A DNA stretch of 64,000 nt, from assembly GCA_023247255.1 (NCBI GenBank), contig JAHFGV010000005.1, forward strand, positions 6,067-70,066. Reading direction: 5' to 3'. The stretch's first letter is position 1, and each line of letters starts with the position of its first letter. The notes under the pieces are model-generated. The model saw only the letters and a list, made by a program, of their open reading frames with translations, made no database searches and was not told the DNA's origin. This document shows, piece by piece, positions 1,833 through 53,432 of this stretch. The DNA is from Candidatus Omnitrophota bacterium. Its GTDB lineage: Bacteria; Omnitrophota; Gorgyraeia; Aquiviventales; Aquiviventaceae. Both the position numbers and the translations under genes were made by a program.

Positions 1833-2422
1833 CACGCGATCAGCTTCTTGCCATCTTTCGCCAGTGCAACGCCCTTCAGCGAGGGCATTTTGAACTCTCT
1901 TCAGGGCTGCATAGTGGGCACTACTTTCAATGCGCGCAGTTTTTGCAACACCCGAAACTAGCTGCTACCGTCTGCCGCGAGCTTGCCCGGCGATTTGTGT
2001 CGCGCAAGCCAACCGTCGTGATCGGTCCGGCGACGGGAGGCATCATCGTGGCGTATGAAGTTGCCCGAGCCCTGAGGGGCAGGGCCCTCTACGCCGAGCG
2101 GGTCGATGCCGAGATGCAATTGCGTCGCGGGTTCACCGTGACGAAGTTGGATCGGGTGCTTTTAGTGGAAGATGTGGTCACAACCGGAGAGTCTGCCCGG
2201 AAGGTGGCGGAGTTGGTAGAGGCTATGGGTGCGAAGGTAGTCGGCATCGGTGCCGTTGTGGATCGCTCCGGCGGCAAGGTTCGTTTCCGAGGCTGTCGTT
2301 ACGAAAAGCTGCTGGAACTGGACTTTGAGCACTTCGGACCGCACGACTGCCCCCTGTGTAACGAGCACATCCCTTTGACCCATCCGGGTCGGCCGAAAAA
2401 AGGCATGTTCCAAGAGAAATAA
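1826..2422 (+). CDS. pyrE: orotate phosphoribosyltransferase
   Basis: ATG 1826 overlaps the pyrF stop (ATGTTGA). GHFELSSGLHS and the PRPP-binding motif LLVEDVVTTGES are present. The track start at 1574 is in-frame read-through over pyrF. Confidence 0.85.
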   Translation: MLTRDQLLAIFRQCNALQRGHFELSSGLHSGHYFQCAQFLQHPKLAATVCRELARRFVSRKPTVVIGPATGGIIVAYEVARALRGRALYAERVDAEMQLRRGFTVTKLDRVLLVEDVVTTGESARKVAELVEAMGAKVVGIGAVVDRSGGKVRFRGCRYEKLLELDFEHFGPHDCPLCNEHIPLTHPGRPKKGMFQEK

Positions 2423-2700
2423 TAATGAGGATTGTGTCCTATTCCAAGAGAAGTAATGAGGATTGTGTCATGTTTCATGAGTCATGTGTCATGAGAGACT
2501 GTTTCATGTGTTATGTGTCATGAAAAAAGCAGAAAATAAACAGGCATCTCAAGCACGGCCAAAGTACGCCTTTTGCTTTCCATGACTCATGACACATAAA
2601 ACATGAAACATGACACAGACGTGAGTACTGGAGCTTAGAACCGTGACTCATGAAACAGACGTGAGCACTGCCACTAACCGCGATGCATTTTGAAAACCCT
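2409..2700. repeat. CATG-rich tandem plus inverted repeat element
   Basis: A ~30-nt tandem duplication spans the pyrE stop (2409-2440 / 2443-2471). A GTCATG-rich arm (2466-2523) is complementary to a CATGAC-rich arm (2579-2627). The terminal 55 nt (2645-2699) recur at 40158-40213. Confidence 0.7.
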
Positions 2701-2719: not shown

Positions 2720-3247
2720 ATGCCTCACGAGTCGATCATCCGAGCCACGGTCGGCGTACTCTTAAGCGGCCTGATCCTCACGGCCGCCTTTTGGGTCGTG
2801 GCGTTACGGAATCTTTTTCGCGCCACCCTCAGCTTAGGGCTTGTCTTGGTCGGGGTGGCTTGTGTCTTTCTTTTGCTTGAAGCGGAGTTCTTGGCATTTG
2901 TTCAGATTTTGGTCTATGTGGGTGCGATTCTGACTTTGGTTGTGTTCGCCGTCATGTTAACGGCTCGTCTGCACATCAGCCCCGCCACACGGGTGACTCA
3001 CCGCCAAGATTCCTGGCTCGCGGGTGCGGCAGCCCTAGCCCTGTTTGGATTATTGGTCTGGGCCACGCAATCGTTGACATTTCCCCAGCGCTTGGCCGTG
3101 GAGTCGGTCCGGTTAACCGCTGTGGGCCAGCAATTCATTACGACTCTGATTTTACCCTTTGAGGCGATCTCCCTGATTTTTGTGGCGGCCATGGTAGGTG
3201 CCATTGCTTTGGTGACTCGTCAATTCCCGCCGTCGGCTGAGCCCTAA
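2720..3247 (+). CDS. nuoJ: NADH-quinone oxidoreductase subunit J
   Basis: ATG 2720 follows AAGAGG. Polytopic ND6/NuoJ-like sequence (LLEAEFLAFVQILVYVGAILTLVVF). The track TTG start at 2690 lies inside the repeat. Confidence 0.8.
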   Translation: MPHESIIRATVGVLLSGLILTAAFWVVALRNLFRATLSLGLVLVGVACVFLLLEAEFLAFVQILVYVGAILTLVVFAVMLTARLHISPATRVTHRQDSWLAGAAALALFGLLVWATQSLTFPQRLAVESVRLTAVGQQFITTLILPFEAISLIFVAAMVGAIALVTRQFPPSAEP

Positions 3248-3288
3248 CAGGTTACAGGAAAATGCCCTGTTTGCTCAAAGCTAACAAT

Positions 3289-3549
3289 GGGGGGAACGGG
3301 GTGGGAGACGTGGGGCGTGGGAGAACAGATTACAAGAGATAAAAAGTCCTACAACCGGTTTTAAAAAAGGGTTCTTCTGGTTTTGCAGTGGGTAAAAGGA
3401 GCAACACTTCCCTCTCCCAAAGGGAGAGGGAGAAGGGCATGCCCATATATCCCGGAAGCGCCTAAAAAAGAACGGGCGATGTCTAGCTTTCAAGATTTAT
3501 GGAGTGCTATTCGCACTTCCCTCGCCCCCCGCCCCGTTCCCTTTACCCC
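3289..3549. repeat. GC-rich element, copy K, with G-run/C-run terminal inverted repeats
   Basis: G-arm 3289-3328 (runs G6,G4,G3,G4,G3) and C-arm 3514-3549 are about 21/26 complementary. Internal perfect hairpin CCCTCTCCC-AAA-GGGAGAGGG (3410-3430). Confidence 0.55.
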
Positions 3550-3603
3550 GGATGCGGGTTTTTCAGCAGTCTGCTGATAGCAAGGATATTGAAACGTAAA
3601 CTC

Positions 3604-5816: not shown

Positions 5817-5826
5817 ATTCCGCAGT

Positions 5827-6325
5827 TTTTAGCAGGATGCTAAAAGACCCACGGGATGCTAGAGTGCCTAACATAATGATCGCATGGTCGCGCTGGGCGT
5901 AATTGCTTCGATGCGCAAGACGCCAGGAGGAAGCCGTACTGATCCATAGAAGTACGGTGACGACGAGCAACGCAGCGCGGCGAAGCAATTCCGCCCAGCC
6001 CTTAGGGTTGCACTGAAAGATGGCCATCTGCTGCGTCGTTCCTCCTCGGCGTAGCGCTCCTTCGGCTACGCCTTCGTCGTCACTCCTTGCATCTGGGCCA
6101 TCTTTCAGTGCAACGCGGCCATGTGCTCATTATGTTAGGCACTCTTAGGCTGCTCAAAAAGGTGCGAGATGCAAGGCGCAGCTCGATTCGGCTGAGTCCT
6201 TTGACTATCGCTCAGGACTCAGCCCTGAGCAACGTCGAAGGGCTGAGGAGGCGCGTACTTTCAAGTACGCTGACGAAGCCGTCAGGCATACAACGCAGCA
6301 GATGTGTCTTTTTCAGCAGCCTGCT
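5827..6325. repeat. multi-hairpin structured spacer (nested inverted repeats)
   Basis: Outer inverted repeat 5861-5893 / 6117-6149, containing an 18-nt perfect core. Inner inverted repeats 5894-5911/5982-5999 (17/18) and 6009-6026/6097-6114 (18/18). Further hairpins lie at 6193-6286. The spacer is bounded by the similar motifs TTTTTAGCAGGATGCT (5827) and TTTTTCAGCAGCCTGCT (6309). Confidence 0.6.
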
Positions 6326-6340
6326 TAGGGAGATGCGCAC

Positions 6341-11260: not shown

Positions 11261-11773
11261 ATGCCTCCTATTCTGCAACTGGACGTCCAGCAGATTATTT
11301 CACAGGCCATCAGCTTTCTAATCCTGCTGTGGGTGCTTAAGCGTTTTGCCTGGCGTCCGCTGCTTTCGATGCTCGATCAGCGTCGGGAGCGTATCGATCA
11401 GGACTTAGCGCAGGCGGCGGCCAAGAAAGAAGAGCTGACGCGCCTTGAGGAAGACTACCGCAAGCGCTTGGCGGCGATCGACCAGGAAGCCCGGCTAAAG
11501 ATTCAGGAAGCTGTTCAGGAAGGCAAACAGGTGGCTATGGAGATTCAAGGACAGGCGCGTGTTGCGGCTCAAAACATCCTGGCGAAAGCCCAGGAAACGG
11601 TAGAGATGGAACTCTCCAAGGCTAAAGTTACATTGAGGGATCAAGTGGTTGAGATGACTTTAGAGGCGCTCGAACGCATGCTGCGCAAAAAACTCGACGC
11701 CCAGACGGATCGTCTGCTCATCGAAGCGTCCCTCGAAGAGCTGGAGCAGCAACAATCCACGAAGACTTCGTGA
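11261..11773 (+). CDS. atpF: F0 ATP synthase subunit b
   Basis: 170 aa: an N-terminal TM helix followed by a long charged helix. Operon position fits. Confidence 0.8.
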   Translation: MPPILQLDVQQIISQAISFLILLWVLKRFAWRPLLSMLDQRRERIDQDLAQAAAKKEELTRLEEDYRKRLAAIDQEARLKIQEAVQEGKQVAMEIQGQARVAAQNILAKAQETVEMELSKAKVTLRDQVVEMTLEALERMLRKKLDAQTDRLLIEASLEELEQQQSTKTS

Positions 11774-11882
11774 ATTGCCGATTTTCGATTTTGGGCTGAG
11801 AGAATTTTCGATTGTAGATTTTAGATTGTCGATTGGAAAACACGACAAATCGACAATCGAAAATTGACAATCGACGATTCGT
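11772..11882. repeat. CGATTGTCGATT-unit palindromic element, copy A
   Basis: Starts at the atpF stop. The arms TAGATTGTCGATT and AATCGACAATCGA are complementary. Related to copy B at 19280-19363. Confidence 0.6.
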
Positions 11883-11940
11883 TGGGCCTTAAGCCAAAAG
11901 CCTTGAGCAAACAGATATTTTCCGTAGCCTGCTAGTACGA

Positions 11941-12489
11941 ATGGTAATGAATCCCATCGCGAGTCGCTACGCCGAAGCCCTCTTAGAAGTATCCAAGGAT
12001 GCAGATGCGGTTGATGAGACGCTGGGGCAACTCCTCATCATCCGCCAGGCGCTTCAGGAACATCCCGATGCTCGGGGGCTGTTCTACAATCCTGACGTGA
12101 CGCCCAAGGAGAAAGTGGCGGTGTTGGATCGATCGGTGCAAGGTCAATGGACGGGCTTAGTGCGTTCCTTCATCCAAGTGGTCGCTTCCTTTAACCGCGC
12201 CGAATGCCTCGATGAGATCATTGAGGCTTTTGGGCAAGCGGTGGATGCTGCGCAGGGACGTCTGCGAGTCACCGTTCGCTCAGCGTCCGCGATTTCCGAA
12301 GAACTCCTGGAACGTTTGCGCCTGAGCTTGGCTAAGCGGGAAGGCAAGGAGATTCTCCTGCGCAGGGAACTGGACGCGCAGCTTATCGGAGGCTTGCAGA
12401 TCGTTTTGGATCATCGCGTCATCGATGGTTCGCTGCGTCGGCAGTTGACGGAGTTGCGCCAGCGTCTGCGTCGTGTGAGGGTCCACTAA
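11941..12489 (+). CDS. atpH: F1 ATP synthase subunit delta
   Basis: 182 aa with an OSCP-like N-terminus ([11 protein letters not shown]). Operon position fits. Confidence 0.8.
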
Positions 12490-19139: not shown

Positions 19140-19213
19140 GGGCGGTTAGCTCAGTTGGTTAGAGCGTCTGATTTACATTCAGAAGGTCGGGGGTTCGAGT
19201 CCTCCACCGCCCA
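19140..19213 (+). tRNA. tRNA-Val (anticodon TAC)
   Basis: Cloverleaf folded by hand: acceptor GGGCGGT/ACCGCCC, D-arm GCTC..GAGC, anticodon loop TTTACAT, T-loop TTCGAGT. Confidence 0.9.
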
Positions 19214-19279
19214 GGTTTTTAACCTCCTGGTGTGGAGGATTCGAAGGGAGCCGAGCCTTCGGTCAATCAAGAGAGCCGA

Positions 19280-19363
19280 GGGAATTGTCGATTGACGATT
19301 GTCGATTTTTGATTGAACGGCCGTCTTCCAATCGACAATCCAAAATCGACAATCGAAAATTCC
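19280..19363. repeat. CGATTGTCGATT-unit palindromic element, copy B
   Basis: Ends GGGAATTGTCGATT / AATCGAAAATTCCC are 13/14 complementary. Shares AATCGACAATCGAAAATT with copy A. Confidence 0.6.
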
Positions 19364-19433
19364 CAGGCTGTTTCATGATTCCTTAGGCGAGGCGGATGGC
19401 CGACCGGAACGAGCCGAAGGCGAGTGAAGGCGC

Positions 19434-19450
19434 CGAGTCCTCCACCGCCC
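19434..19450 (+). repeat. 17-nt duplicate of the tRNA-Val 3' end
   Basis: CGAGTCCTCCACCGCCC is identical to 19196-19212. Confidence 0.7.
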
Positions 19451-19516
19451 GTATAAATTTTGCTTCGAAATGTGAGTGACCCGTTCATTAGTTTTATAGA
19501 TAAAGGACATTAGGAT

Positions 19517-20803
19517 ATGTGTGCGCGACTTGTTTTATTCGTTATTAGTCTGCTCCTCGGTTGGTTCAGTAGTCACAGGTTTTGTGCCGCTCAATCCCAA
19601 ACATCCGTTGCCCAAGATTCCAGCGGTTCGTACAACGCCGGGCTCACGCTGGTCGATGTTCCTTATCCGTCGGGGCGCGGTGAGGAAGCGATCATCACAA
19701 CGGCGGTGTGGTATCCGACCCGACAAGCCCAGGATGAATACGCCTATCGATTGACCCAAGACTATATCAGCCAAGTCGCACTGGATGCTCCGGTTGCTCC
19801 AGGAGAGCCTTATCCTTTGGTTATCTATATCCACGGTGGTTTCTCCTCCGGATTCGCCTCATCGTTTTTCACGGAGGAGCTGGCCCGTCACGGCTATGTG
19901 GTGGTGGCCCCGGATTATGTGGATACGATCCCACCGGATTATACGCAGTCCTTGGCCTTCAGCCGGATGCGCCAGGGAAAGACTGCCCGGAATATCCAGG
20001 TTCTCAAAGCCGCCAAGCAATGGGTGGCTGACATGAACGCGGATTCAGATTTCTTTCTCTCTTATCTGGCGGCCCATCGGCTTCCGCAGACCTCGTTTAT
20101 CATCGACTGGATGCTCAGGCAGAATGCTCAGTCTAGCTCGATGTTCTACCAGGCTGTTGATTCCCAGGCGATCGGAGCCATTGGCTGGTCTGAGGGAGGC
20201 GTGACTATTTTGGCAAAGATTGGAGCCCATCCCGATCCATCCGTTCAGGATTCCAGGATCCGCGCAGCCCTGTTACTTTCATCTCCCGCCTTTCCGGATC
20301 GGTTTCAGCGGATTCGCATTCCCATCATGCTCATGGCTGGAGACGATGATGCTCCGGCAGTTCACCCTGAGAATCCCAGGCGTTTGATTGTTGACCAAGC
20401 GCCGGCGCAGAAATATCACCTCGTCCTTAAAGACACGAACCACTTTGATTTTGGTAACCGCGTCTGTGGCAACACCCCGTTGTATCTAGCCGTTACCCAA
20501 AAACCCAAGGCTCGGGTGATTTTCCAGTATGGGTATACCTTTTTTCAAAAACATCTACGTGGGGATTCCTCAGCCGACCGACGATTGACGCAAGCGGATT
20601 CTCTTTTAGCGTATTATCTATACGACACGAATCCTGCGGCCGAAGGGGTGGTTGAATTTGGAAAGGAGCCAGTATCCTCGGGCCGATCTTTAGGATTGGG
20701 TCATCGATTGCGTCAGCGGTCTGGATCGCAAGAGCAAGGTGGGGGAGGATCCAGCCGGCCGCTACGTCAGTTATTTCAGCGCTTGCGCAATCGCTCCGAA
20801 TAA
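19517..20803 (+). CDS. secreted alpha/beta hydrolase (dienelactone hydrolase / PAF-acetylhydrolase-like)
   Basis: 428 aa with a signal peptide, the nucleophile elbow GWSEGG, and a later D and H (MAGDDD, TNHFDF). Basic Gly/Ser/Arg tail. Confidence 0.6.
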   Translation: MCARLVLFVISLLLGWFSSHRFCAAQSQTSVAQDSSGSYNAGLTLVDVPYPSGRGEEAIITTAVWYPTRQAQDEYAYRLTQDYISQVALDAPVAPGEPYPLVIYIHGGFSSGFASSFFTEELARHGYVVVAPDYVDTIPPDYTQSLAFSRMRQGKTARNIQVLKAAKQWVADMNADSDFFLSYLAAHRLPQTSFIIDWMLRQNAQSSSMFYQAVDSQAIGAIGWSEGGVTILAKIGAHPDPSVQDSRIRAALLLSSPAFPDRFQRIRIPIMLMAGDDDAPAVHPENPRRLIVDQAPAQKYHLVLKDTNHFDFGNRVCGNTPLYLAVTQKPKARVIFQYGYTFFQKHLRGDSSADRRLTQADSLLAYYLYDTNPAAEGVVEFGKEPVSSGRSLGLGHRLRQRSGSQEQGGGGSSRPLRQLFQRLRNRSE

Positions 20804-20940
20804 ATTTCGCTGCGCGAATCTATCAGTACCGAACACGTTCAAACCGAGGTGGACGGAAGCTGCGATTCACGATACTATCGTCACTCCGACTGAAATCAGA
20901 GATTTTCTCCGTTACGCGTTTCGCATTGCACGGTTTTTCA

Positions 20941-21106
20941 GGAGGCGCAGCTCAATGGGTTAGGCGTAGCCCCCGCAGCTTTGATCTGTCCCTAGAAATC
21001 GCGAAGCGATTTCAGGGATCAAATCCGAAATGCTTTGCATTCCATGGGACGAAGCAAATCAGTGGGAGGTGGCGGCCTATCGAGCCGTAGGTTGCGGGTT
21101 AGAGCC
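20941..21106 (+). pseudogene. disrupted tRNA-Asp paralogue
   Basis: The 5' part 20941-20963 matches the tRNA-Asp 5' half (3 mismatches). About 100 nt of hairpin-rich insert follows. 21069-21106 matches 23793-23830 (2 mismatches; anticodon becomes ATC). The T-arm and acceptor 3' side are missing. Confidence 0.6.
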
Positions 21107-21126: not shown

Positions 21127-22193
21127 TAGATCTGTTGCACAATTGCCCAATTTGTAGCATCCTATCCTTAACGCAGAGGAGGAACAAAGGCATGCTACGA
21201 TTTGCCAAACTCGTGCACCACCCGAGGAAACTCTACAGAATGACGGGACTTACGCTTGACCAGTTCCAGACGCTGACGAATCGGCTCACCCCGCTGTGGG
21301 AGCAAGCGGAACGGATGTGCCTCTCGCAGCGCAAGCGAAAGCCACGCCATCGGGAAAGAGTACCAAGTACAAGCTCTCCACGATGGCGGACAAACTCCTG
21401 TGCGTGCTCAGCTTCTACCGCTTCTACCTCTACCTTTGAGCTGCTCGGCTATCTCGTCGGCCTGGATGCCAGCAATATCTGTCGGCTAAAGCCTCGGCTC
21501 GAACCGCTCATTGAGCAGGCAGCCGATCCAAGCCTGGGGCTGTCGCTCCGCCGTCGGCTCCCGCCCGGCGTCAAGAGAATCGGCACCTGGGAGGAACTCG
21601 TGGAGCGCTGTCCGGACTTCGCAGACGTGGTCACTGATGCGACCAAGCAGGCACGACTCCGTCCACCGCGACGCACCCAGCGGCGCTGGTACTCCGGCAA
21701 ACGTAAGCGCCACACACTCAAGACGCAGTTGAGCATCACTCGGCAGAGTGGCCGGATCCTCCATATCAGTTCAACCGTCCCGGGCCGTGTCCATGACTAC
21801 GCGCTCTTGAAGCGGACGCGACTGGACGAACGGCTGCCGCCGAAGACGCGCCTCACCCTGGATCGGGGGTATGATGGTGCCATGACGGACTATCCGACTC
21901 CCGCTATCGCGCTGCCCGTCAAGCGTCGAGGCAACCACCAGGTCCTGACGCGCTCGGAGCGGGCATTCAACCGCCTCCAGGCGCGGCAGCGGATCATCGT
22001 GGAGCATGTCCCAAGTTGCGTGAAGAAGTACCAGCTCCTCGCGCAGGTCTACCGCCACCGGATCGCGGACTACAACCACCGCTTTCGCAACATTGCGGCC
22101 TTGACGAACTTCCGCCTAACGCCGACGGTGACGTAACCGAACCCGGACGCGCGGAGCCTTCATCGTGTCAAGGGCAACTGCGCAATAGGTCTA
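21127..22193 (+). mobile_element. IS element (IS5/Harbinger-type DDE_Tnp_4 transposase)
   Basis: Imperfect terminal inverted repeats: TAGATCTGTTGCACAATTGCCC (21127-21148) against the reverse complement of 22172-22193 (about 17/21). One transposase ORF lies inside. Confidence 0.7.
21192..22136 (+). pseudogene. DDE_Tnp_4 transposase with compensating frameshifts
   Basis: ATG 21192 follows GAGGAGG. Core motifs DATKQARLRP, YSGKRKRHTLK, PGRVHDY and DRGYDG are present. The family-typical segment KYKLSTMADKLLCVLSFYRFYL is readable only in the +2 frame between about 21350 and 21431. Confidence 0.6.
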
Positions 22194-22278
22194 TTGAATT
22201 AGCTCATGTTGAAATGTAGTGGAACTTGTAGTGGCTGAGCTAACGTGAAAGTACAGTTTCGTAGATGAGGAGCTAACC

Positions 22279-23768: not shown

Positions 23769-23842
23769 GGGGGCGTAGCTCAATTGGTTAGAGTGGCGGC
23801 CTGTCGAGCCGTAGGTTGCGGGTTCGAGCCCCGTCGCCCCCG
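23769..23842 (+). tRNA. tRNA-Asp (anticodon GTC)
   Basis: Acceptor GGGGGCG/CGCCCCC, D-arm GCTC..GAGT, anticodon loop CTGTCGA, T-loop TTCGAGC. Confidence 0.9.
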
Positions 23843-24101: not shown

Positions 24102-24121
24102 TGCGCAATAGGTCTATTGAA
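24102..24121 (+). repeat. solo copy of the IS right end plus flank
   Basis: TGCGCAATAGGTCTATTGAA is identical to 22179-22198. Confidence 0.6.
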
Positions 24122-25043: not shown

Positions 25044-25057
25044 ATGACGTACGTCAT
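25044..25057. promoter_or_regulatory. Crp/Fnr-type dyad site 2
   Basis: ATGAC-GTAC-GTCAT, a perfect 14-nt palindrome. TACAGT lies at 25080-25085. Confidence 0.5.
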
Positions 25058-36269: not shown

Positions 36270-38051
36270 ATGACACCCTTCGTCCGATTCCTTGGATCGC
36301 TGAGCATCGCGGTGCCGCTGCTGATCGTGATTGCCCTGGTGCTCGCATGGGGCACCATCTATGAAACCCGCTTTGGCACGGCGGCGGTTCAGCGCTTTGT
36401 CTACCACGCGTGGTGGTTTCAAGCGCTCCTCGGCTTTCTGGCGATCAACCTCGCCGTGGCTGCGCTCGAGCGCTATCCGTGGCAGCGTCGACACCTGCCG
36501 TTTGTCCTGGCCCACATCGGCATCATCCTCATCCTGATTGGGGGGATTATCGGAGCCCGATTCGGCATCGAGGGTCAGATGATCATTCCGGAAGCTCAGG
36601 CCGAGCGCGTCCTCGAGCAGCCAGGCAATGTCCTTGTAGTGCGCCAGCCAAACCCGGGTCTATCTATCATCATCCCCACGCAGTTTGAAACGCAGGCCTG
36701 GGTGCATGAGCCGAACGCGACCTTTCCCGTGACTCTCGATGGCCGGACGATTGCGCTCACCGTCGACCGCTACTATCCCGACGCGGTGACGGATGAAGAA
36801 ATCACAAGCGGTGGCGCTGAGGACAATCCGGCTCTCCACATGCTGCTTACGCACAACGAGCAGCAGGATGCGGTGTGGCTCATGAGCAGGGACTCTGAGC
36901 GTTTTGGTATGGGCTGGGGTGAGGCGCACGTGCTCTTCCTTGAACCAAGAACTGCTTCTGAAGTCGATCGGCTTACTGGGGCTGGGCGCTCACCTGGCGT
37001 CGCGTCTGCGCGAGGCGTGATCGTTATCCGCCTACCCGGGATGCATGCGCCACGCGAGATTCCGGTTCCCGATGAGCGCAACCGATCCGTCGACGTCACA
37101 GGCACGCCCTATCAGATCATCTTCAAGGATTACTTTCCCGATTTTGCGATTACCGAACAGGGGATCGTGAGCCGCTCGCTTGAGGCCAATAACCCTGCGG
37201 TTTCTTTCATCATCACCGGACCCGAGGGAACCGATGCGTATTTGCTGTTTGCGCTCCATCCCGATTTTCAAACGATCCATGGCTTCGAACATAAGATCGA
37301 CGCCCAGGTGAGTTATACCCACACCGCCAGCGCTGCGCTGCCTCCCAATTGTATCGGGCTCATCCGTGCACCATCAGGAACCTTAATCGGTATCTTGACC
37401 GGCAGCGGGACCGATCGATCCGTGATCAATCCGCTGGAACTTGGCAAACGGTACACCCACCCTTCGCTCGGCTATCAGTTTGAAGTCGCCACGTACTATC
37501 CCCGTGCGGTTCTCACGCAGCACGTCACCAACCGAGGAGATGAAATCAAAGCCGAAACGCTTCATCTCGTGGGACGTGAAGGTGATCAGAGCGCAGAGGC
37601 GTGGTTGGGTTTGCGCGGCTCGGCAGAATTCGCGTTGGGAAAGGAGCCGGTTACGATTGAGTACCGACCGGCCCGATGGGAGCTGCCGTTTACCATCAAG
37701 CTCTTGGACTTTCGCAAGATCGACTATCCAGGAACGCAGATGGCCTCGGCGTTTGAAAGCGACGTGGAGCTCACCGATTCTCAGCGGGGTGTCATCCTGA
37801 TGCGCAAGATTACGATGAACAACCCCCTGCGCTACCGCGGGTTTAGCGTGTACCAATCCAGCTACATCGAAGGCCCGACGGAAACCACAGTGCTCTCGGT
37901 GCGCAATGATCCAGGAACCCCATTTGTTTATGCGGGGTTCATCATTGTGATCGCCGGCGTCGTCAGTATGTTTGTGCTCGGCACCCCCTCCACGACCGCA
38001 ACCCCTCCGCCTTCGATCCGGCGAGTACGCAGAAGGAGCCGCTCTTCATGA
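36270..38051 (+). CDS. ccsB: cytochrome c biogenesis protein CcsB/ResB (System II)
   Basis: 593 aa with the ResB-like N-terminus (SIAVPLLIVIALVLAWGTIYE), a large periplasmic domain and a C-terminal TM. Confidence 0.85.
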   Translation: MTPFVRFLGSLSIAVPLLIVIALVLAWGTIYETRFGTAAVQRFVYHAWWFQALLGFLAINLAVAALERYPWQRRHLPFVLAHIGIILILIGGIIGARFGIEGQMIIPEAQAERVLEQPGNVLVVRQPNPGLSIIIPTQFETQAWVHEPNATFPVTLDGRTIALTVDRYYPDAVTDEEITSGGAEDNPALHMLLTHNEQQDAVWLMSRDSERFGMGWGEAHVLFLEPRTASEVDRLTGAGRSPGVASARGVIVIRLPGMHAPREIPVPDERNRSVDVTGTPYQIIFKDYFPDFAITEQGIVSRSLEANNPAVSFIITGPEGTDAYLLFALHPDFQTIHGFEHKIDAQVSYTHTASAALPPNCIGLIRAPSGTLIGILTGSGTDRSVINPLELGKRYTHPSLGYQFEVATYYPRAVLTQHVTNRGDEIKAETLHLVGREGDQSAEAWLGLRGSAEFALGKEPVTIEYRPARWELPFTIKLLDFRKIDYPGTQMASAFESDVELTDSQRGVILMRKITMNNPLRYRGFSVYQSSYIEGPTETTVLSVRNDPGTPFVYAGFIIVIAGVVSMFVLGTPSTTATPPPSIRRVRRRSRSS

Positions 38052-39709
38052 AACGCGCCTTTATGACGATTATGACGATGGCGTTATTGTTCGGAGCCTT
38101 GGCGAGATTTATGAGCGTATTCGCAGATCAGCCCGTTGCCCTGCCGCGCGAGGCGCTCGAGACCATACGTCGCATGGCCATCCAACACAATGGACGCAAC
38201 AAACCCTTCGACAGCTTTGCGCGAGAAACCCTCCGACTCATCACCGGCTCAGCGCGCGTGGGAAATGAAGATCCTGTCGAAACCATCTTGACCCTCATGG
38301 CCAGTCCCGACCATGGGCAGCAGTTGCTGCTTGTGTCGGTTCCATTTATCCCTCTGCGAAAGGCTCTGGGCATGGATCCCAAGGCGACGCAGGTGTCCTA
38401 CAACGATTTGGTTGCGACACGCAAGCTCATGCGGCTGCTGCCCCCGATTGTCCAAAAGCAGCAGCGCGAAGAGAAACTTTCGATGCTGGAAGAAGAGACG
38501 ATGGATGTCTTCCAGCGATTTGCCACCCTGAGCACTCTGCTCGAGCAAAAGCTCAACCTCGTGCCTCCACCTGTTGGATCTGCAGAGCGTGTGTGGCAGC
38601 TTGTTGAGGAGCCGTCGGGCTATGCGCCAGCGCAGCAAGAGACCATTCGTACCGCATGGTCCGGGCTGATCGGTGCGGTGCAAGCTGGGCGGGGCGATGC
38701 GGTGATTACCTCAGCGCGTCATGCGGCAGATGCGCTGCGAGATCTGAGCCCTTCTCGCTATCCTCCTCGGTGGCGATTAGCGTTCGAGGTGTTCTACAAC
38801 CACGTCGCGCCATTTCGAATCGCCCAAGGGTTCTATCTGCTCTCAGCGATCCTGTTGTTTCTGAGCCTTGGCGCATTGAAGAAATTCCGGCCAGCGCTTT
38901 TGGGATTTGTCGCTTGCTGCTTCGCGTTTCTCGCGCATGGATCAGGTATCCTGATGCGCGTTGTTCTGGGTGAGCGTCCGCCGGTCTCGAATTTTTTTGA
39001 GACCACGCTGTGGCTGCCGTTCGTCGCAGTCGCCATTGCGCTCATCCTGGAACGTGTGTACCGGACTCGTTACATCGCCCTGGCTGCGGCGATCCTTGCG
39101 ACAATCACCCTGGTTCTCGCGGATCATCTGCCGCTGGACTCGAGCATCTCTCCGGTGGTCGCCGTGCTCCACAGCAATCTCTGGTTGACGATTCACGTGT
39201 TGACCATCGTGGCGAGCTACGGCGCGCTGACCCTGGCGATTGTGCTGGCGCACATGTATGGGGGGATGTACCTGAGTCGCCGCACGAGCGGCTCAACGTT
39301 AGATGCGTTGGGGACATTTCTCTATCGCGTCATCCAAGTCGGCGTCGTGTTATTGGCGGCGGGGATCATGCTGGGCGCCGTGTGGGCCAACGCCTCTTGG
39401 GGCCGTTACTGGGGCTGGGATCCGAAAGAGACCTGGGCGTTGATTACCCTCATCTGGTTCCTGGCGCTGCTGCACGGACGCTTCGCCGGATGGATCAGCG
39501 GTGTTGGCGTAGCCCTGTGCACCGTCGGCGGATTTTTTCTGCTGCTGATGACCTACTACGGTGTCAGCTTCTATCTCGTCGGTCTGCACAGCTATGCCGG
39601 TGCTCATGCCAAGCCCTTGCCCCCAGTTCTCATCGCCTACCTCATCGCTGAACTGGCGTTCATCATCGTGGTGAGCGTCTCAGCCATACTCCGCAGGCGG
39701 CCAGCGTAG
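38048..39709 (+). CDS. ccsA: cytochrome c biogenesis protein CcsA/ResC with N-terminal extension
   Basis: The ATG overlaps the ccsB stop (ATGA). W-rich motif WGRYWGWDPKETWALITLIW. About 240 extra N-terminal residues. Confidence 0.85.
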   Translation: MKRAFMTIMTMALLFGALARFMSVFADQPVALPREALETIRRMAIQHNGRNKPFDSFARETLRLITGSARVGNEDPVETILTLMASPDHGQQLLLVSVPFIPLRKALGMDPKATQVSYNDLVATRKLMRLLPPIVQKQQREEKLSMLEEETMDVFQRFATLSTLLEQKLNLVPPPVGSAERVWQLVEEPSGYAPAQQETIRTAWSGLIGAVQAGRGDAVITSARHAADALRDLSPSRYPPRWRLAFEVFYNHVAPFRIAQGFYLLSAILLFLSLGALKKFRPALLGFVACCFAFLAHGSGILMRVVLGERPPVSNFFETTLWLPFVAVAIALILERVYRTRYIALAAAILATITLVLADHLPLDSSISPVVAVLHSNLWLTIHVLTIVASYGALTLAIVLAHMYGGMYLSRRTSGSTLDALGTFLYRVIQVGVVLLAAGIMLGAVWANASWGRYWGWDPKETWALITLIWFLALLHGRFAGWISGVGVALCTVGGFFLLLMTYYGVSFYLVGLHSYAGAHAKPLPPVLIAYLIAELAFIIVVSVSAILRRRPA

Positions 39710-39820
39710 CGTTCTCGCCTTCTTCCCTAAGGGATCATGCGCCCAAGGAATTCTCATCTCCTCTTTATCCTTGACCTCCTCTACGGCACATCTTAGTTGT
39801 CCAGCCGACAAAAGGTCTCC

Positions 39821-39834
39821 ATGACGTTCGTCAT
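39821..39834. promoter_or_regulatory. Crp/Fnr-type dyad site 3
   Basis: CC-ATGAC-GTTC-GTCAT-GGAAGA. Confidence 0.5.
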
Positions 39835-39929
39835 GGAAGACTCTTATCCGGAGCCGCTATCCTCTTTTTCATGACACATCCGTGAATCACGGCTACAAAT
39901 GGCCGACTTGCTGACGATAAGGTCGTTTC

Positions 39930-39960
39930 TCACAAAGTTCACACCCTGTGAACATTGTGA
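39930..39960. promoter_or_regulatory. 31-nt near-perfect palindrome (operator or hairpin candidate)
   Basis: TCACAAAGTTCACA-CCC-TGTGAACATTGTGA. Arms are 13/14 complementary. Confidence 0.35.
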
Positions 39961-40157
39961 GAGGTACGTTACCGTCGACGAAGCGTGAAATTCCCGCCAG
40001 GTTTGCAACGGAGCTGTCCGGGAAGCGAGGCCGCTCCGACGAGACAGCGGTTGCCTTCGAACTCAATGTTCCCGGTTCCGTACGGTTTTGCAACACTTCT
40101 CGCTCCGCCATCGACGAGGAGCAGCGTAACTCAGACGCGATTCAGGACATAACACAG

Positions 40158-40213
40158 GACTCATGAAACAGACGTGAGCACTGCCACTAACCTCGATGCA
40201 TTTTGTAAAACCC
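40158..40213 (+). repeat. 55-nt satellite copy of the 2645-2699 element end
   Basis: GACTCATGAAACAGACGTGAGCACTGCCACTAACC is identical in both copies. CGATGCATTTTG..AAAACCC follows with 2 differences. Confidence 0.8.
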
Positions 40214-42250
40214 CAGTTACGACTGACGCCTTCCAAGTCTTCTTGCACCTGCTGTAGTGAATCCATCTGCTGCAGCGAATCTCGCGAAAGGTTGACAGGC
40301 TTGTCTGGCCAGCGTCACACGCCGAGCCTCATCGTAACCGGCAACCCCAACGTCGGGAAAAGCGTCATCTTCCAGCTCCTCACCGGCCGCTACGCCACCG
40401 TGTCGAACTATCCGGGCACCACGGTTGCAGTTACCCGAGGATCGGCTTCGTTAGACGGCCGGGTGGTTCGCGTCTACGACACGCCAGGAATCAATAGCTT
40501 GTTCGCCGCCTCAGAAGATGAGCTGGTCGCACGCGATCTGCTGCTGGGTGAACGAACCACCGTGGTGCAGGTTAGCGATGCCAAGAACCTGCTACGTGCC
40601 CTCACACTGACCTTGGAACTGGCTGAAGCTGGACTTCCATCCGTCCTGGATCTGAACATGATGGACGAAGCCAGGGAACGTCGAATCAGCATTGATACGA
40701 AGAAGCTCTCAGGGTTACTTGGGATCTCGGTTGTGCCGACCATTGCAACGCAGCGGTGGGGTATCGAGCGGTTGCGTCGAGTGATCCTGCAGGCACAGCA
40801 GGCTCGGGTTGGCGTTTGCTACCCCAAAGTGATTGAAGATGCCATTGCCAAGATGGTGGAGGTCCTACCAAAGACGCTGGGCGTACGGAAAGCCCTGGCG
40901 TTGTTCTGGCTTGCTGGGGATCGGAACATCATCGAGCAGCTCAAGAAGCAATTCGACCCATCAATCATCGAGGCGCTGACGGCAATCGCTGCGCAGGCTC
41001 AAGAACAGACCTCTGGCCCATTAGGGTTGCTGATCAGTCAAGCCCGACTCCGCGAGGCCGAGCGACTCGTCAAGCAGGTGATGACGACTGCACCTCTGGA
41101 GCGCCAGCGGTGGTTTTACCGCCTGGGTGATTGGGCGATGCACCCGGTTTGGGGGGTGCCCATCCTCGTTGGCGTCCTGGTCATGATGTACTTCCTCGTC
41201 GGAAATCTCGCAGCTCAGCGTGGCGTAGATTTCCTAGAAGACGTGGTCTTTGGGCGCTACCTCACCCCAGTCTTTCAGTGGGTTGTTCAAGGGGCGATCC
41301 CTTGGGGGTGGCTCAAGGCGCTCTTCATCGGTGAGTACGGCCTGCTGACGATGGCTCTGCCCTACGCTTTTGCGATCATCCTGCCCATCGTGGGGATGTT
41401 CTTTCTCTGCTTCGGATTGCTTGAGGATGTGGGCTACCTTCCTCGACTAGCCGTGATGGCCAATCGCTTTTGTCGGCTCCTGGGTCTCAACGGCAAGGCG
41501 GTGCTCCCACTCGTGCTGGGGTTGGGATGCGACACAATGGCCACGATGACCGCCCGCATCCTCGACTCGGATCGGGATCGGATCATCACAACGCTCTTGT
41601 TGGCACTCGGCATCCCTTGTTCCGCTCAACTGGGCGTCATCCTAGCGATGCTGGCGGGCCGCCCGCCGTTGGCCCTGGGGATTTGGCTTGGCGTGTTACT
41701 CATGGTGATCATTGTGGTTGGTCAAGCCGCGTCAAGAATCCTGCCGGGCGAGGAGAGCCCGTTTCTCTACGAGATCCCACCGCTTCGCACGCCGAAGCTG
41801 TCGAATGTGCTGATCAAGACGCTGGGTCGCATCGAGTGGTATGTGAAAGAAGCCGTCCCGCTGTTCTTCCTGGGAACCCTGGTGTTATTCCTCCTCGATG
41901 TGACAGGAGCCCTGGCGGTCTTCGAGCGAATCGGGACCCCGCTCATTGTCTCGTGGCTCGGGCTGCCAGCCAAAGCGACCAGTGCATTTCTGGTGGGATT
42001 TCTCCGACGGGATTTTGGTGCGGCCGGGCTCTTCGCGCTTCAGCGAAACGGAATGTTATCTGGAGTCCAGACCGTCGTCAGCCTCGTTACCATCACGCTG
42101 TTTGTCCCCTGCATCGCCCAGTACTTCATGATGGTCAAAGAGCGCGGCTGGAAACTCGCAAATCTGATGGCGGGGTTTGTCTTCGGGATGGCGCTGCTTG
42201 TTGGAGGTCTCCTCTTGCGCGTTCTCACCCTGTTGCGAGTTACCCTATGA
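40196..42250 (+). CDS. feoB: ferrous iron transporter FeoB
   Basis: G-domain motifs GNPNVGKS and NYPGTTV, followed by a polytopic permease. The ATG at 40196 lies in the repeat, so the true start is uncertain (TTG near 40293 is possible). Confidence 0.9.
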   Translation: MHFVKPQLRLTPSKSSCTCCSESICCSESRERLTGLSGQRHTPSLIVTGNPNVGKSVIFQLLTGRYATVSNYPGTTVAVTRGSASLDGRVVRVYDTPGINSLFAASEDELVARDLLLGERTTVVQVSDAKNLLRALTLTLELAEAGLPSVLDLNMMDEARERRISIDTKKLSGLLGISVVPTIATQRWGIERLRRVILQAQQARVGVCYPKVIEDAIAKMVEVLPKTLGVRKALALFWLAGDRNIIEQLKKQFDPSIIEALTAIAAQAQEQTSGPLGLLISQARLREAERLVKQVMTTAPLERQRWFYRLGDWAMHPVWGVPILVGVLVMMYFLVGNLAAQRGVDFLEDVVFGRYLTPVFQWVVQGAIPWGWLKALFIGEYGLLTMALPYAFAIILPIVGMFFLCFGLLEDVGYLPRLAVMANRFCRLLGLNGKAVLPLVLGLGCDTMATMTARILDSDRDRIITTLLLALGIPCSAQLGVILAMLAGRPPLALGIWLGVLLMVIIVVGQAASRILPGEESPFLYEIPPLRTPKLSNVLIKTLGRIEWYVKEAVPLFFLGTLVLFLLDVTGALAVFERIGTPLIVSWLGLPAKATSAFLVGFLRRDFGAAGLFALQRNGMLSGVQTVVSLVTITLFVPCIAQYFMMVKERGWKLANLMAGFVFGMALLVGGLLLRVLTLLRVTL

Positions 42251-49826: not shown

Positions 49827-51057
<1,231 letters not shown>

Positions 51058-51087
51058 ATTTTGCTGCGCAACATTTATTAACCGGAT

Positions 51088-53182: not shown

Positions 53183-53347
53183 GGTTCTTTGGGGTGTGAT
53201 CGCGTAGGGTACGTGGTGGGATGACAATTCGAAACGACGCTCCGAGTTCAGCGACCTAAGCTCGCGTGATGGCGGGGATGGTCCCTGAACCCCTGTCCCA
53301 CACGCAACGCCGCGTGTAGGACCGGGCCGGGAAGGAAACGACTCGGC

Positions 53348-53432
53348 CTCCTCGTGTTCGGAAAGGAGACGGCAGGCTGGAGTATCGTCAAGCCAGCTTC
53401 TCTTTCCACACGAGGAGCTGGCTTGTTTCGTC
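53348..53432 (+). promoter_or_regulatory. leader RNA with alternative stems (attenuator or riboswitch candidate)
   Basis: Stem CTCCTCGTGT (53348-57) / ACACGAGGAG (53408-17) competes with the terminator-like stem AAGCCAGCT (53390-98) / AGCTGGCTT (53416-24), which is followed by GTTTCGT. Confidence 0.3.

Follow-up and report, generated by a model that had tools for sequence, protein, structure and literature searches.

Heptamer repeats of the STRR type were reportedly described in cyanobacteria by Mazel and colleagues in 1990. Tandem repeats of 7-nt units, including the unit TAACTGA, are known in cyanobacteria, Beggiatoaceae and Bacteroidetes (MacGregor, 2015, PMC4679880). Among the other small repeats of bacterial genomes, miniature inverted-repeat transposable elements, or MITEs, undergo co-transcription, serve at times as substrates of RNase III or RNase E, and can both supply promoters and nest (PMC10969869), while REPINs form strand-specific single-strand structures and have been proposed to be mobilised as hairpins (PMC3116915, PMC3733652). 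Described here is a repeat element that separates pyrE from nuoJ in a 64,000-nt stretch of DNA, hereafter the window, from a Candidatus Omnitrophota bacterium (GenBank assembly GCA_023247255.1, contig JAHFGV010000005.1, positions 6,067 to 70,066). The element is built around inverted pairs of heptamer arrays, part of its right end recurs upstream of feoB, no description of such elements in Omnitrophota was found in the literature searched, and the repeat class is apparently undescribed.

The spacer between pyrE and nuoJ

Pfam searches identified within the window pyrF, pyrE (1826-2422), nuoJ (2720-3247), nuoK and nuoL, as well as a ccsA-like gene (38048-39709), feoB and a DtxR/FeoA-type gene. 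The closest relatives of the encoded PyrE and FeoB are found in groundwater metagenome-assembled genomes (MAGs) of the "Omnitrophica WOR_2" type, some of which carry the label Planctomycetales. The gene order pyrF-pyrE-nuoJ(-K-L-M) is preserved in 19 related Omnitrophota genomes, and in 14 of these the gap between pyrE and nuoJ measures only about -37 to +27 nt, as compared with 297 nt (2423-2719) in the window; because the junction is so tight in these relatives, the whole of the block 2408-2703 is read as inserted. The position of its left boundary is indicated by the PyrE protein itself. Specifically, PyrE of the relatives ends in ..RPGRPxKxM(L), while that of the window ends in ..RPKKGM-FQEK; homology to the relatives stops at M194 (2405-2407), where the first copy of a 31-34-nt tandem duplication begins, and both the FQEK tail and the pyrE stop codon are encoded by this first left-flank copy, which starts at 2408. 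The start of the element accordingly coincides with the ancestral stop codon. The block has a GC content of 41%, as against 58% for the window, and no 14-mer is common to it and any related locus, where nhmmer and blastn searches were likewise empty. Taken together, these data lend good support to the conclusion that the block is a lineage-specific insertion that starts at the ancestral pyrE stop codon and now terminates pyrE.

The insertion is composite, and its parts, all given here on the + strand, succeed one another as flank and array. Copy 1 of the left flank (TTCCAAGAGAAATAATAATGAGGATTGTGTCCTA; 2408-2441) starts exactly at pyrE codon F195, supplies codons F-Q-E-K and the stop (2420-2422), and ends with a stray array unit, TGTGTCC; copy 2 (TTCCAAGAGAAGTAATGAGGATTGTGTC; 2442-2470) continues into the left array. 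A repeat search aligns the two copies at 86% identity with a 3-nt indel and finds no third copy of the left flank within the window, and each occurrence of the flank sequence TTCCAAGAGAAR..TAATGAGGAT runs into array units. The left array (2464-2522) was returned by Tandem Repeats Finder (TRF) as 8.3 copies of a period-7 unit, TGTGTCA, and is interrupted by GAGAC, yielding an outer sub-array of 31 nt (TGTGTCA TGTTTCA TGAGTCA TGTGTCA TGA; 2464-2494), which pairs with 2642-2658, and an inner sub-array of 24 nt (TGTTTCA TGTGTTA TGTGTCA TGA; 2500-2523), which pairs with 2587-2610. An A/T-rich loop of 57 nt (2524-2580), whose short complementary ends (AAAAGCAG... / ...CTTTTGCTTT) lengthen the stem, separates these from the right inner array (CATGACT CATGACA CATAAAA CATGAAA CATGACA CA; 2581-2617), which comprises 5.3 copies of a period-7 unit, CATGACA, complementary to the left. 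Copy 1 of the right flank (CAGACGTGAGTACTGGAGCTTAGAACCGT; 2616-2644) follows and, finally, a 59-nt module (2645-2703) made up of two array units, copy 2 of the right flank and a 23-nt extension. Right flank copy 1 repeats the module core in tandem and in degenerate form (81% repeat); the core match ACAGACGTGAGTACTG is found there with 1 mismatch, and the degenerate copy as a whole spans 2609-2644. The right side accordingly reads as an array, then CAGACGTGAGTACTG..AACCGT, then the short array GACTCAT GAAACAG, then ACGTGAGCACTG..AACCGCGA, which is the module core. The element thus holds flank plus array twice on each side, with the inner arrays forming an inner stem and the outer arrays an outer stem.

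Pairing between the two sides is extensive. The arms are complementary at 82% over 44 nt, the inner stem (2500-2523 with 2587-2610) at 96% over 24 nt and the outer stem (2471-2484 with 2644-2657) at 100% over 14 nt, and the arrays themselves are imperfect, with TRF unit matches of 69-83%. CATG occurs at a density of 40.6 per kb in the spacer versus 4.2 per kb elsewhere in the window. Symmetry does not extend to the flanks: when the left flank was compared with the reverse complement of the right, the observed score was reached by 114 of 500 shuffles. The one candidate for a target-site duplication is the match between TCCAAGAG (2409-2416) and TCTAAGAG (2706-2713), which are identical at 7 of 8 positions, the right copy being the nuoJ ribosome-binding site; excision of the element at these two sequences would leave pyrE without a stop codon. 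Small open reading frames (ORFs) within the spacer (33 aa at 2425-2526, and an 8-aa frame, MHFENPQI) are unsupported and were treated as by-products of the repeats.

When folded as RNA, the segment 2400-2720 reaches -95.8 kcal/mol on the + strand (z = -4.2) and -103.4 kcal/mol on the - strand (z = -5.9), in each case with 0 of 100 shuffles as good, and the hairpin core (2470-2618) gives z = -4.7 (+) and -6.0 (-). The stems are A/T-rich with no T-run after them, and no intrinsic terminator was found in 2300-2800 on either strand or at the feoB locus. A processing site of the RNase III type is plausible, judging from the long stem (24 bp, 96%). An earlier note on this DNA, made from the sequence alone, had described a duplication that includes the pyrE stop codon and CATG-rich complementary arms around a loop; both descriptions stand, with copies at 86% identity, arms 82-96% complementary and a 57-nt loop, and the folding energies agree with them. 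What that description missed is that the arms are 7-nt arrays, that the block is a lineage-specific insertion, and that it is one of a class of heptamer hairpins spread across the clade.

The junction into which the element is inserted is a hot spot, as four other genomes carry unrelated inserts between pyrE and nuoJ. These are hairpin inserts as well: L010 has CTGC repeats, both L014 and L017 have an inverted-repeat element (CCCCAC(A/C)CCTGC), and L015 has a CCAAATC/TTGGTGC heptamer hairpin. Neighboring junctions of the window are likewise long: the nuoJ-nuoK gap (3248-3603) measures 356 nt and the nuoL-nuoM gap (5817-6340) 524 nt, as compared with roughly 0-30 nt in most relatives, and each holds a long inverted repeat (3292-3322 with 3511-3541, and 5861-5895 with 6111-6145, respectively). 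As a separate observation, both of these gaps end in a common motif, TTTTTCAGCAGYCTGCT (3559 and 6309), located 28 nt before the nuoK start and 15 nt before the nuoM start.

The 59-nt module and its copy before feoB

The module at 2645-2703 matches 40158-40216, in the spacer between the ccsA-like gene and feoB, with 35 of 35 positions identical followed by one mismatch and two single-base indels; 0 of 100 shuffles gave a comparable match. It is composed of the array units GACTCAT GAAACAG, which belong to the right arm of the outer hairpin, of flank copy 2 (ACGTGAGCACTGCCACTAACCG), and of the 23-nt extension (CGATGCATTTTGAAAACCCTCAG). The second copy occupies 40129-40216 on the + strand and consists of a degenerate flank, the array remnants CATAACA CAGGACT CATGAAA CAG, and the module, which is the same composite right end as that of the spacer element. 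Homology between the two loci (2613-2703 versus 40129-40216) amounts to 83.5% over 91 columns, and the conclusion that about 90 nt of the right end of the element is common to the feoB upstream region is well supported. The feoB copy is identical across three independent assemblies (L082, L083 and L084), and the Logan contig L084 begins at the first unique k-mer past the 35-mer common to both copies, which is what a repeat present at least 2 times would be expected to produce. In addition, a 15-nt exact match (15/15) to ATGTGTCATGAAAAA, corresponding to 2513-2527 (the end of the left arm and the start of the loop), lies at 39865-39879 on the - strand, about 280 nt upstream of the feoB copy, and is possibly a relic of the same element.

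The earlier note had recognised a repeated 3' module. Its near-identical recurrence holds, while its extent is larger than the 55 nt proposed, reaching 59 nt (to 40216) within a homology of about 90 nt. The further statement that both copies end directly before a gene is refined as follows: the nuoJ ATG (2720) lies 16 nt past the end of the module, with 2704-2719 between, while the annotated feoB ATG (40196) lies inside it. This ATG has no Shine-Dalgarno sequence, and the FeoB_N domain starts at residue 46; because FeoB N-termini are variable and unconserved among relatives, they do not confirm that feoB starts at this ATG. Going by the GAAAGG that precedes it, a TTG at 40298 may plausibly be the true start. 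The idea that the module is the native leader of feoB was rejected on its absence upstream of feoB in two relatives, and the module is in fact absent from all related loci examined, including those upstream of nuoJ. It is best read as the right flank of the element, which now forms a leader before nuoJ and feoB.

A promoter role for the module, which had also been raised, gains no support. No sigma-70-like promoter (-35/-10 with 16-18-nt spacing) was found on the + strand in 2300-2800 or 39650-40350, in a scan confined to the sigma-70-like consensus, and the module alone has neither significant RNA structure (z = -1.1 and 0.0) nor a dyad or palindrome. Sigma-54 (TGGCAC-N5-TTGC) and extracytoplasmic function (TGAAAC-N16-CGT) promoters were checked by hand and dropped after partial matches only. 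A link to a dyad motif reported elsewhere in the window is limited to a common hexamer: the GTCATG and CATGAC of the element are those of ATGAC-N4-GTCAT dyads at 25044, 39821 and 43309, whereas the dyad arrangement itself (GTCAT/ATGAC with 0-20-nt spacing) does not occur within 2400-2720.

Searches for known identities and further copies were similarly negative. No Rfam family reached its gathering score in the region, and at the E-value threshold the only matches were chance ones to eukaryotic microRNAs and small nucleolar RNAs (E >= 2). The 22-mer CATGAMACAGACGTGAGYACTG has no match in the GTDB one-genome-per-species collection; its sole match in JGI metagenomes (L001) was rejected as chance, the contig being eukaryote-like with flanks that do not match. 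A looser pattern has no match in IMG/VR, nor did blastn find any in plasmid or phage collections; the collections searched do not include the source genome. On the explanation preferred below, the block 2408-2703 is neither a conserved regulatory RNA nor an operator.

Paired heptamer arrays across the clade

The architecture seen between pyrE and nuoJ recurs throughout the clade. In a TRF sample consisting of the window and 21 related loci (270 kb of clade DNA), 7 nt is the dominant period, with 51 rows and further rows at periods 14 and 21. Syntenic loci of other phyla (603 kb) gave 2 period-7 rows, both in a contig of the same Omnitrophota clade, leaving about 598 kb of syntenic DNA from other phyla with no period-7 array. 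An inverted partner (at least 70% complementarity, within 90 nt) is present for 49 of 66 arrays. Arm lengths have their mode at 30-33 nt, many arms being perfect 4.3-copy arrays, and the outer left sub-array of the pyrE-nuoJ element (31 nt) fits this mode. The units themselves are diverse, with 38 canonical heptamers among 49 arrays, some of which recur between sites or genomes. For example, ATTGTCG arrays occur in the window at 11804-11875 and 19284-19360 and also at the nuoK-nuoL junction of L011 (7438-7469), and the nuoK-nuoL junctions of L009 and L013 carry units similar to ATTGTCG. The first of these arrays is part of an ATTGTCG-type heptamer hairpin (11783-11899) between ORFs 11261-11773 and 11941-12489.

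Members of the class also lie within genes. In pyrD, just after the SCPN motif, 17 of 17 inserts are multiples of 3 nt (examples are L003:3342-3428, L009:4605-4700 and L012:4705-4791, the window's own being at 472-564), and at a carB site after YYSTYE 14 of 15 are in frame (for example L009:1630-1716 and L018:2010-2108). These in-gene arrays hold fixed sites across species (L002-L021 and the window) but differ in unit from genome to genome. Array-bearing PyrD inserts fold with z values of -2.0 to -7.7, mostly below -3, and at the pyrD site of L010 a non-periodic, nearly perfect 20-bp palindrome is found instead of an array. Where the unit has changed in one arm the change is mirrored in the other, as illustrated by GCGGATT/AATCCGC in L009 and GCGGAAT/ATTCCGA in L011.

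A further property of the class is strand asymmetry. In 23 of 30 class hairpins (for example L009:5196-5263, L004:4655-4735 and window 2464-2660), a count that includes orthologous hairpins, which are not independent observations, folding is stronger on the antisense strand through G-U pairs, with a mean gain of 5.7 kcal/mol and a maximum of 29.6 kcal/mol; for the pyrE-nuoJ hairpin the advantage is 5.4-8.7 kcal/mol. Random windows of the same loci lean in the opposite direction (mean -1.6, with 39% better on the - strand), and the class hairpins are A+C-rich on the sense strand whereas the background is G+T-rich. This bias could reflect either a strand-specific structure or selection acting against hairpins in mRNA. 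No conserved GTAG or CGTC tag flanks class members. Taken together, these findings give good support to the view that the pyrE-nuoJ element is a complex member of a clade-wide heptamer-hairpin class. A more specific kinship was considered for a hairpin at L020:11054-11149 (CGTGTCA/CGTTGAA), in which the 14-nt unit CGTGTCACGTTGAA is identical to TGTGTCATGTTTCA of the pyrE-nuoJ element at 10 of 14 positions and ACGTGAGAACC adjoins the left arm; the alignment is borderline (score 38 versus a null of 24.6 +/- 4.0, maximum 38), and homology is not claimed.

Several other features of the window deserve mention in their own right. The dyad motif yATGACG-N2-CGTCATr (CATGAC-N4-GTCATG) has 7 sites at no more than 2 mismatches versus 3.0 expected (24425, 24882, 25043, 39820, 43308, 53168 and 62468), which are mostly intergenic and include positions upstream of feoB (39820-39835), of the operon that follows the DtxR/FeoA gene, and of a molybdenum cofactor (Moco) riboswitch; the motif is a candidate operator, distinct from the heptamer element. 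The riboswitch itself (Moco/tungsten, 53228-53385) matches Rfam RF01055 at 61.6 bits. Also in the feoB upstream region is a 15-bp inverted repeat with 1 mismatch, CTCACAAAGTTCACA-ccc-TGTGAACATTGTGAG (39929-39961), a candidate operator, perhaps for the DtxR-like regulator encoded downstream. The second ATTGTCG/CGACAAT hairpin (19284-19360) lies within 19140-19450, between a tRNA (19140-19213) and a 17-nt repeat of the 3' end of that tRNA (19196-19212 = 19434-19450), an arrangement reminiscent of an att-like duplication, enclosing about 220 nt of inserted DNA without coding capacity. Similarly, a 38-nt partial tRNA copy (21069-21106 versus 23793-23830, 95%) is found 2.7 kb upstream of the tRNA at 23769-23842, and a 20-nt exact repeat is located at 22179-22198 and 24102-24121; together these suggest a small integrated island between them. 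Finally, the sequence CCrTATAAATTTYGCTkCG is present in three copies (19449-19470, 20796-20817 and 51050-51071), of which two lie a short way ahead of the ORF starts at 19517 and 51088, and one comes immediately after the repeated tRNA end.

Explanations and described repeat systems

The explanation preferred here, to which a probability of about 0.6 is attached, is that a lineage-specific, non-coding, repeat-driven hairpin insertion took place at the pyrE stop codon and that its right flank was copied upstream of feoB. The basic unit would be a left flank, a heptamer array, a loop, a complementary array and a right flank, and the double flank-plus-array layout may have arisen by self-nesting or by symmetric duplication of both sides. 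Slippage in a 7-nt register is the most likely means by which the arrays expand and become homogeneous, and either template switching inside the hairpin or selection would preserve the approximate complementarity of the arms. Some 90 nt of the right end would have been copied to the ccsA-feoB spacer, or would share a common source with it, and ectopic recombination, gene conversion or transposition could each have provided the route. Given the abutting or overlapping pyrE and nuoJ genes of relatives, a pyrF-pyrE-nuoJKLM message probably carries the insert, which would fold there into a hairpin of some 150 nt whose 24-bp stem is near-perfect and which lacks a U-tract. On the model of Correia, ERIC and REP elements (PMC10969869), such a hairpin likely acts in processing or protection of the mRNA, as an RNase-III-type site or a barrier to exonucleases, and it likely removes translational coupling between pyrE and nuoJ; it is not likely to terminate transcription.

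A number of points weigh against this explanation. Just two copies of the module are known, such that a mobile or recombinational origin is deduced and not seen, and the signature of a classical transposon is missing, since the flanks are non-complementary and there is no clear target-site duplication. Between the two loci the module is about 95% identical, as against about 60% for the 30 nt that immediately precede it, an unevenness that could stem from selection on the module, and hence from function, instead of a short conversion tract. That the insert is co-transcribed and processed is assumed, and in a short-read MAG the copy numbers of repeats may have been collapsed. The uneven identity fits the main rival, under which the module would be a portable regulatory cassette (a promoter, operator or leader) maintained by selection, placing nuoJKLM and feoB under a common signal such as iron. 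Each copy does lie immediately 5' of a gene, the two are oriented alike, the long upstream hairpin could isolate nuoJ from pyrE transcription and so make an internal promoter useful, and promoters carried by MITEs are documented, for example in Correia elements (PMC10969869). Set against this are the want of a sigma-70-like -35/-10 pair on the + strand of either copy and of any dyad, palindrome or RNA structure in the module, its absence before feoB and nuoJ in every relative examined, which shows that it is not an ancestral control region, and the fact that, with two copies, a short gene-conversion tract accounts equally well for the uneven identity. The cassette is, on balance, unlikely. At this locus, 296 nt of repeat DNA has come to lie in a junction that is tight in relatives; it now terminates pyrE, stands ahead of nuoJ and has a leader segment in common with the iron transporter gene feoB, which should temper regulatory readings drawn from sequence alone.

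The clade-wide pattern invites broader proposals. Tentatively, and with the odds rather against it, the hairpins may represent a clade-specific Omnitrophota system in which strand-specific hairpins made of heptamer arrays of about 30 nt occupy fixed sites (operon junctions and in-frame surface loops of PyrD and CarB), with the sequence renewed and the architecture kept. If so, passive slippage would have to give way to an active templated mechanism that works in 7-nt steps and sets arm length by a ruler, or else to a function of the antisense-strand hairpin, and the 59-nt module would be a conserved recognition or priming flank of this family. A more doubtful proposal makes the hairpin a strand-specific signal on the antisense strand, as single-stranded DNA or antisense RNA, with a dedicated enzyme (an HUH/Y1-type nuclease or a templated polymerase) that makes, moves or maintains the hairpins; the pyrE-nuoJ element would then be actively involved as a member of that system. 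The better folding of the - strand in 23 of 30 hairpins, with random windows behaving oppositely, agrees with such a signal, as do the clustering of arms at 30-33 nt, often as perfect 4.3-copy arrays, and the use of the same sites with different units in different species; the asymmetry can nevertheless arise as well where selection favours A-C mismatches on the sense strand that make mRNA hairpins weaker, the orthologous hairpins are non-independent, no candidate enzyme was identified, and no conserved GTAG/CGTC tag stands beside class members. It is very improbable that the arrays form a contingency locus in which heptamer number switches nuoJ expression or alters the PyrE C-terminus. The 7-nt tandem units do adjoin a start codon and overlap a stop codon, and repeat-dependent phase variation in 5' untranslated regions is known (PMC12721329), yet the imperfection of the units (69-83% matches) lowers slippage, and, because the arrays follow the pyrE stop and are 100-250 nt away from the nuoJ start, a change in length would shift neither reading frame nor promoter spacing. 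Exact-protein look-ups (PyrE, NuoJ, NuoL and others), yielding contigs that were short or lacked DNA, recovered no polymorphic assemblies. Scarcely credible is the suggestion that the spacer is an artefact of short-read MAG assembly, whether chimeric or a collapsed repeat: Logan contigs do break at these repeats, as at the start of L084, and PyrE and NuoJ are absent from Logan assemblies, but the exact PyrE (with its FQEK tail) and NuoJ proteins are found on two contigs, in NCBI and ENA, the feoB copy is identical in three assemblies, and the same architecture is present in many independent MAGs from different studies. The repeats do have practical consequences of this kind, as they break short-read assemblies and produce spurious starts and ORF extensions in MAG annotation, feoB being an example.

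Like the TAACTGA repeats, those of the window are tandem 7-nt units, mostly intergenic and often near start codons, with shorter spacers at the same site in relatives, several heptamers per spacer, and assemblies that break there (PMC4679880). The defining property of heptamer repeats, head-to-tail 7-nt units in non-coding DNA, is present here in the TRF arrays of 8.3 and 5.3 copies. The differences lie in orientation, since the TAACTGA repeats are almost always direct, with one inverted set among 170 in the BOGUAY genome (PMC4679880), while here they form inverted hairpin pairs. Moreover, unlike in the TAACTGA and STRR repeats, the units here are TGTGTCA, TGTTTCA and TGAGTCA, TAACTGA is absent, the host is an Omnitrophota bacterium, and the class also occurs in frame within genes.

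Similarities to MITEs such as Correia (CREE), ERIC and Nezha include small non-coding inserts with inverted symmetry that are intergenic within operons (PMC10969869). Unlike MITEs, the pyrE-nuoJ element lacks terminal inverted repeats, its symmetry being confined to internal arrays. Also missing are a clear target-site duplication, a known parent insertion sequence and, within the 64-kb window, which holds one full and one partial copy, a multi-copy family of fixed sequence; its arms, furthermore, are short tandem units. With the REP and REPIN sequences mobilised by RAYT proteins it shares hairpin-forming, intergenic inverted doublets (PMC3116915, PMC3733652). REPs, unlike the present class, are units of 20-40 nt that bear a GTAG or CGTC head and occur in hundreds of near-identical copies per genome, whereas here the sequence differs from site to site; the element is without GTAG, CGTC on the - strand adjoins both right-flank copies (CACGTCTG) but not other class hairpins, and no RAYT was seen. 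Like the Rickettsia palindromic elements (PMC10969869), the class places palindromic DNA in frame into housekeeping genes, where it is tolerated by the protein. The pyrE-nuoJ element itself gives PyrE no more than its four C-terminal codons, while the pyrD and carB members are fully in frame. The Rickettsia elements differ in forming families of about 150 bp with conserved sequence and peptide in many genes, as opposed to the same sites, varying units and heptamer-array arms seen here.

The layout of a flank module, variable internal tandem units and a second flank, forming long hairpins within transcripts, is also that of the pneumococcal BOX elements, whose internal units differ in measuring about 45 nt and whose modules are conserved genome-wide in more than 100 copies. 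The pattern in Omnitrophota offers a tractable case for the old open question of how and why 7-nt repeats arise in bacteria, because the arrays are absent from the syntenic DNA of other phyla, stand in frame in essential genes, and show antisense-biased folding. Taken together, these comparisons identify the pyrE-nuoJ element as a variant among the known heptamer and palindromic intergenic repeats, set apart by the inverted pairing of its arrays.

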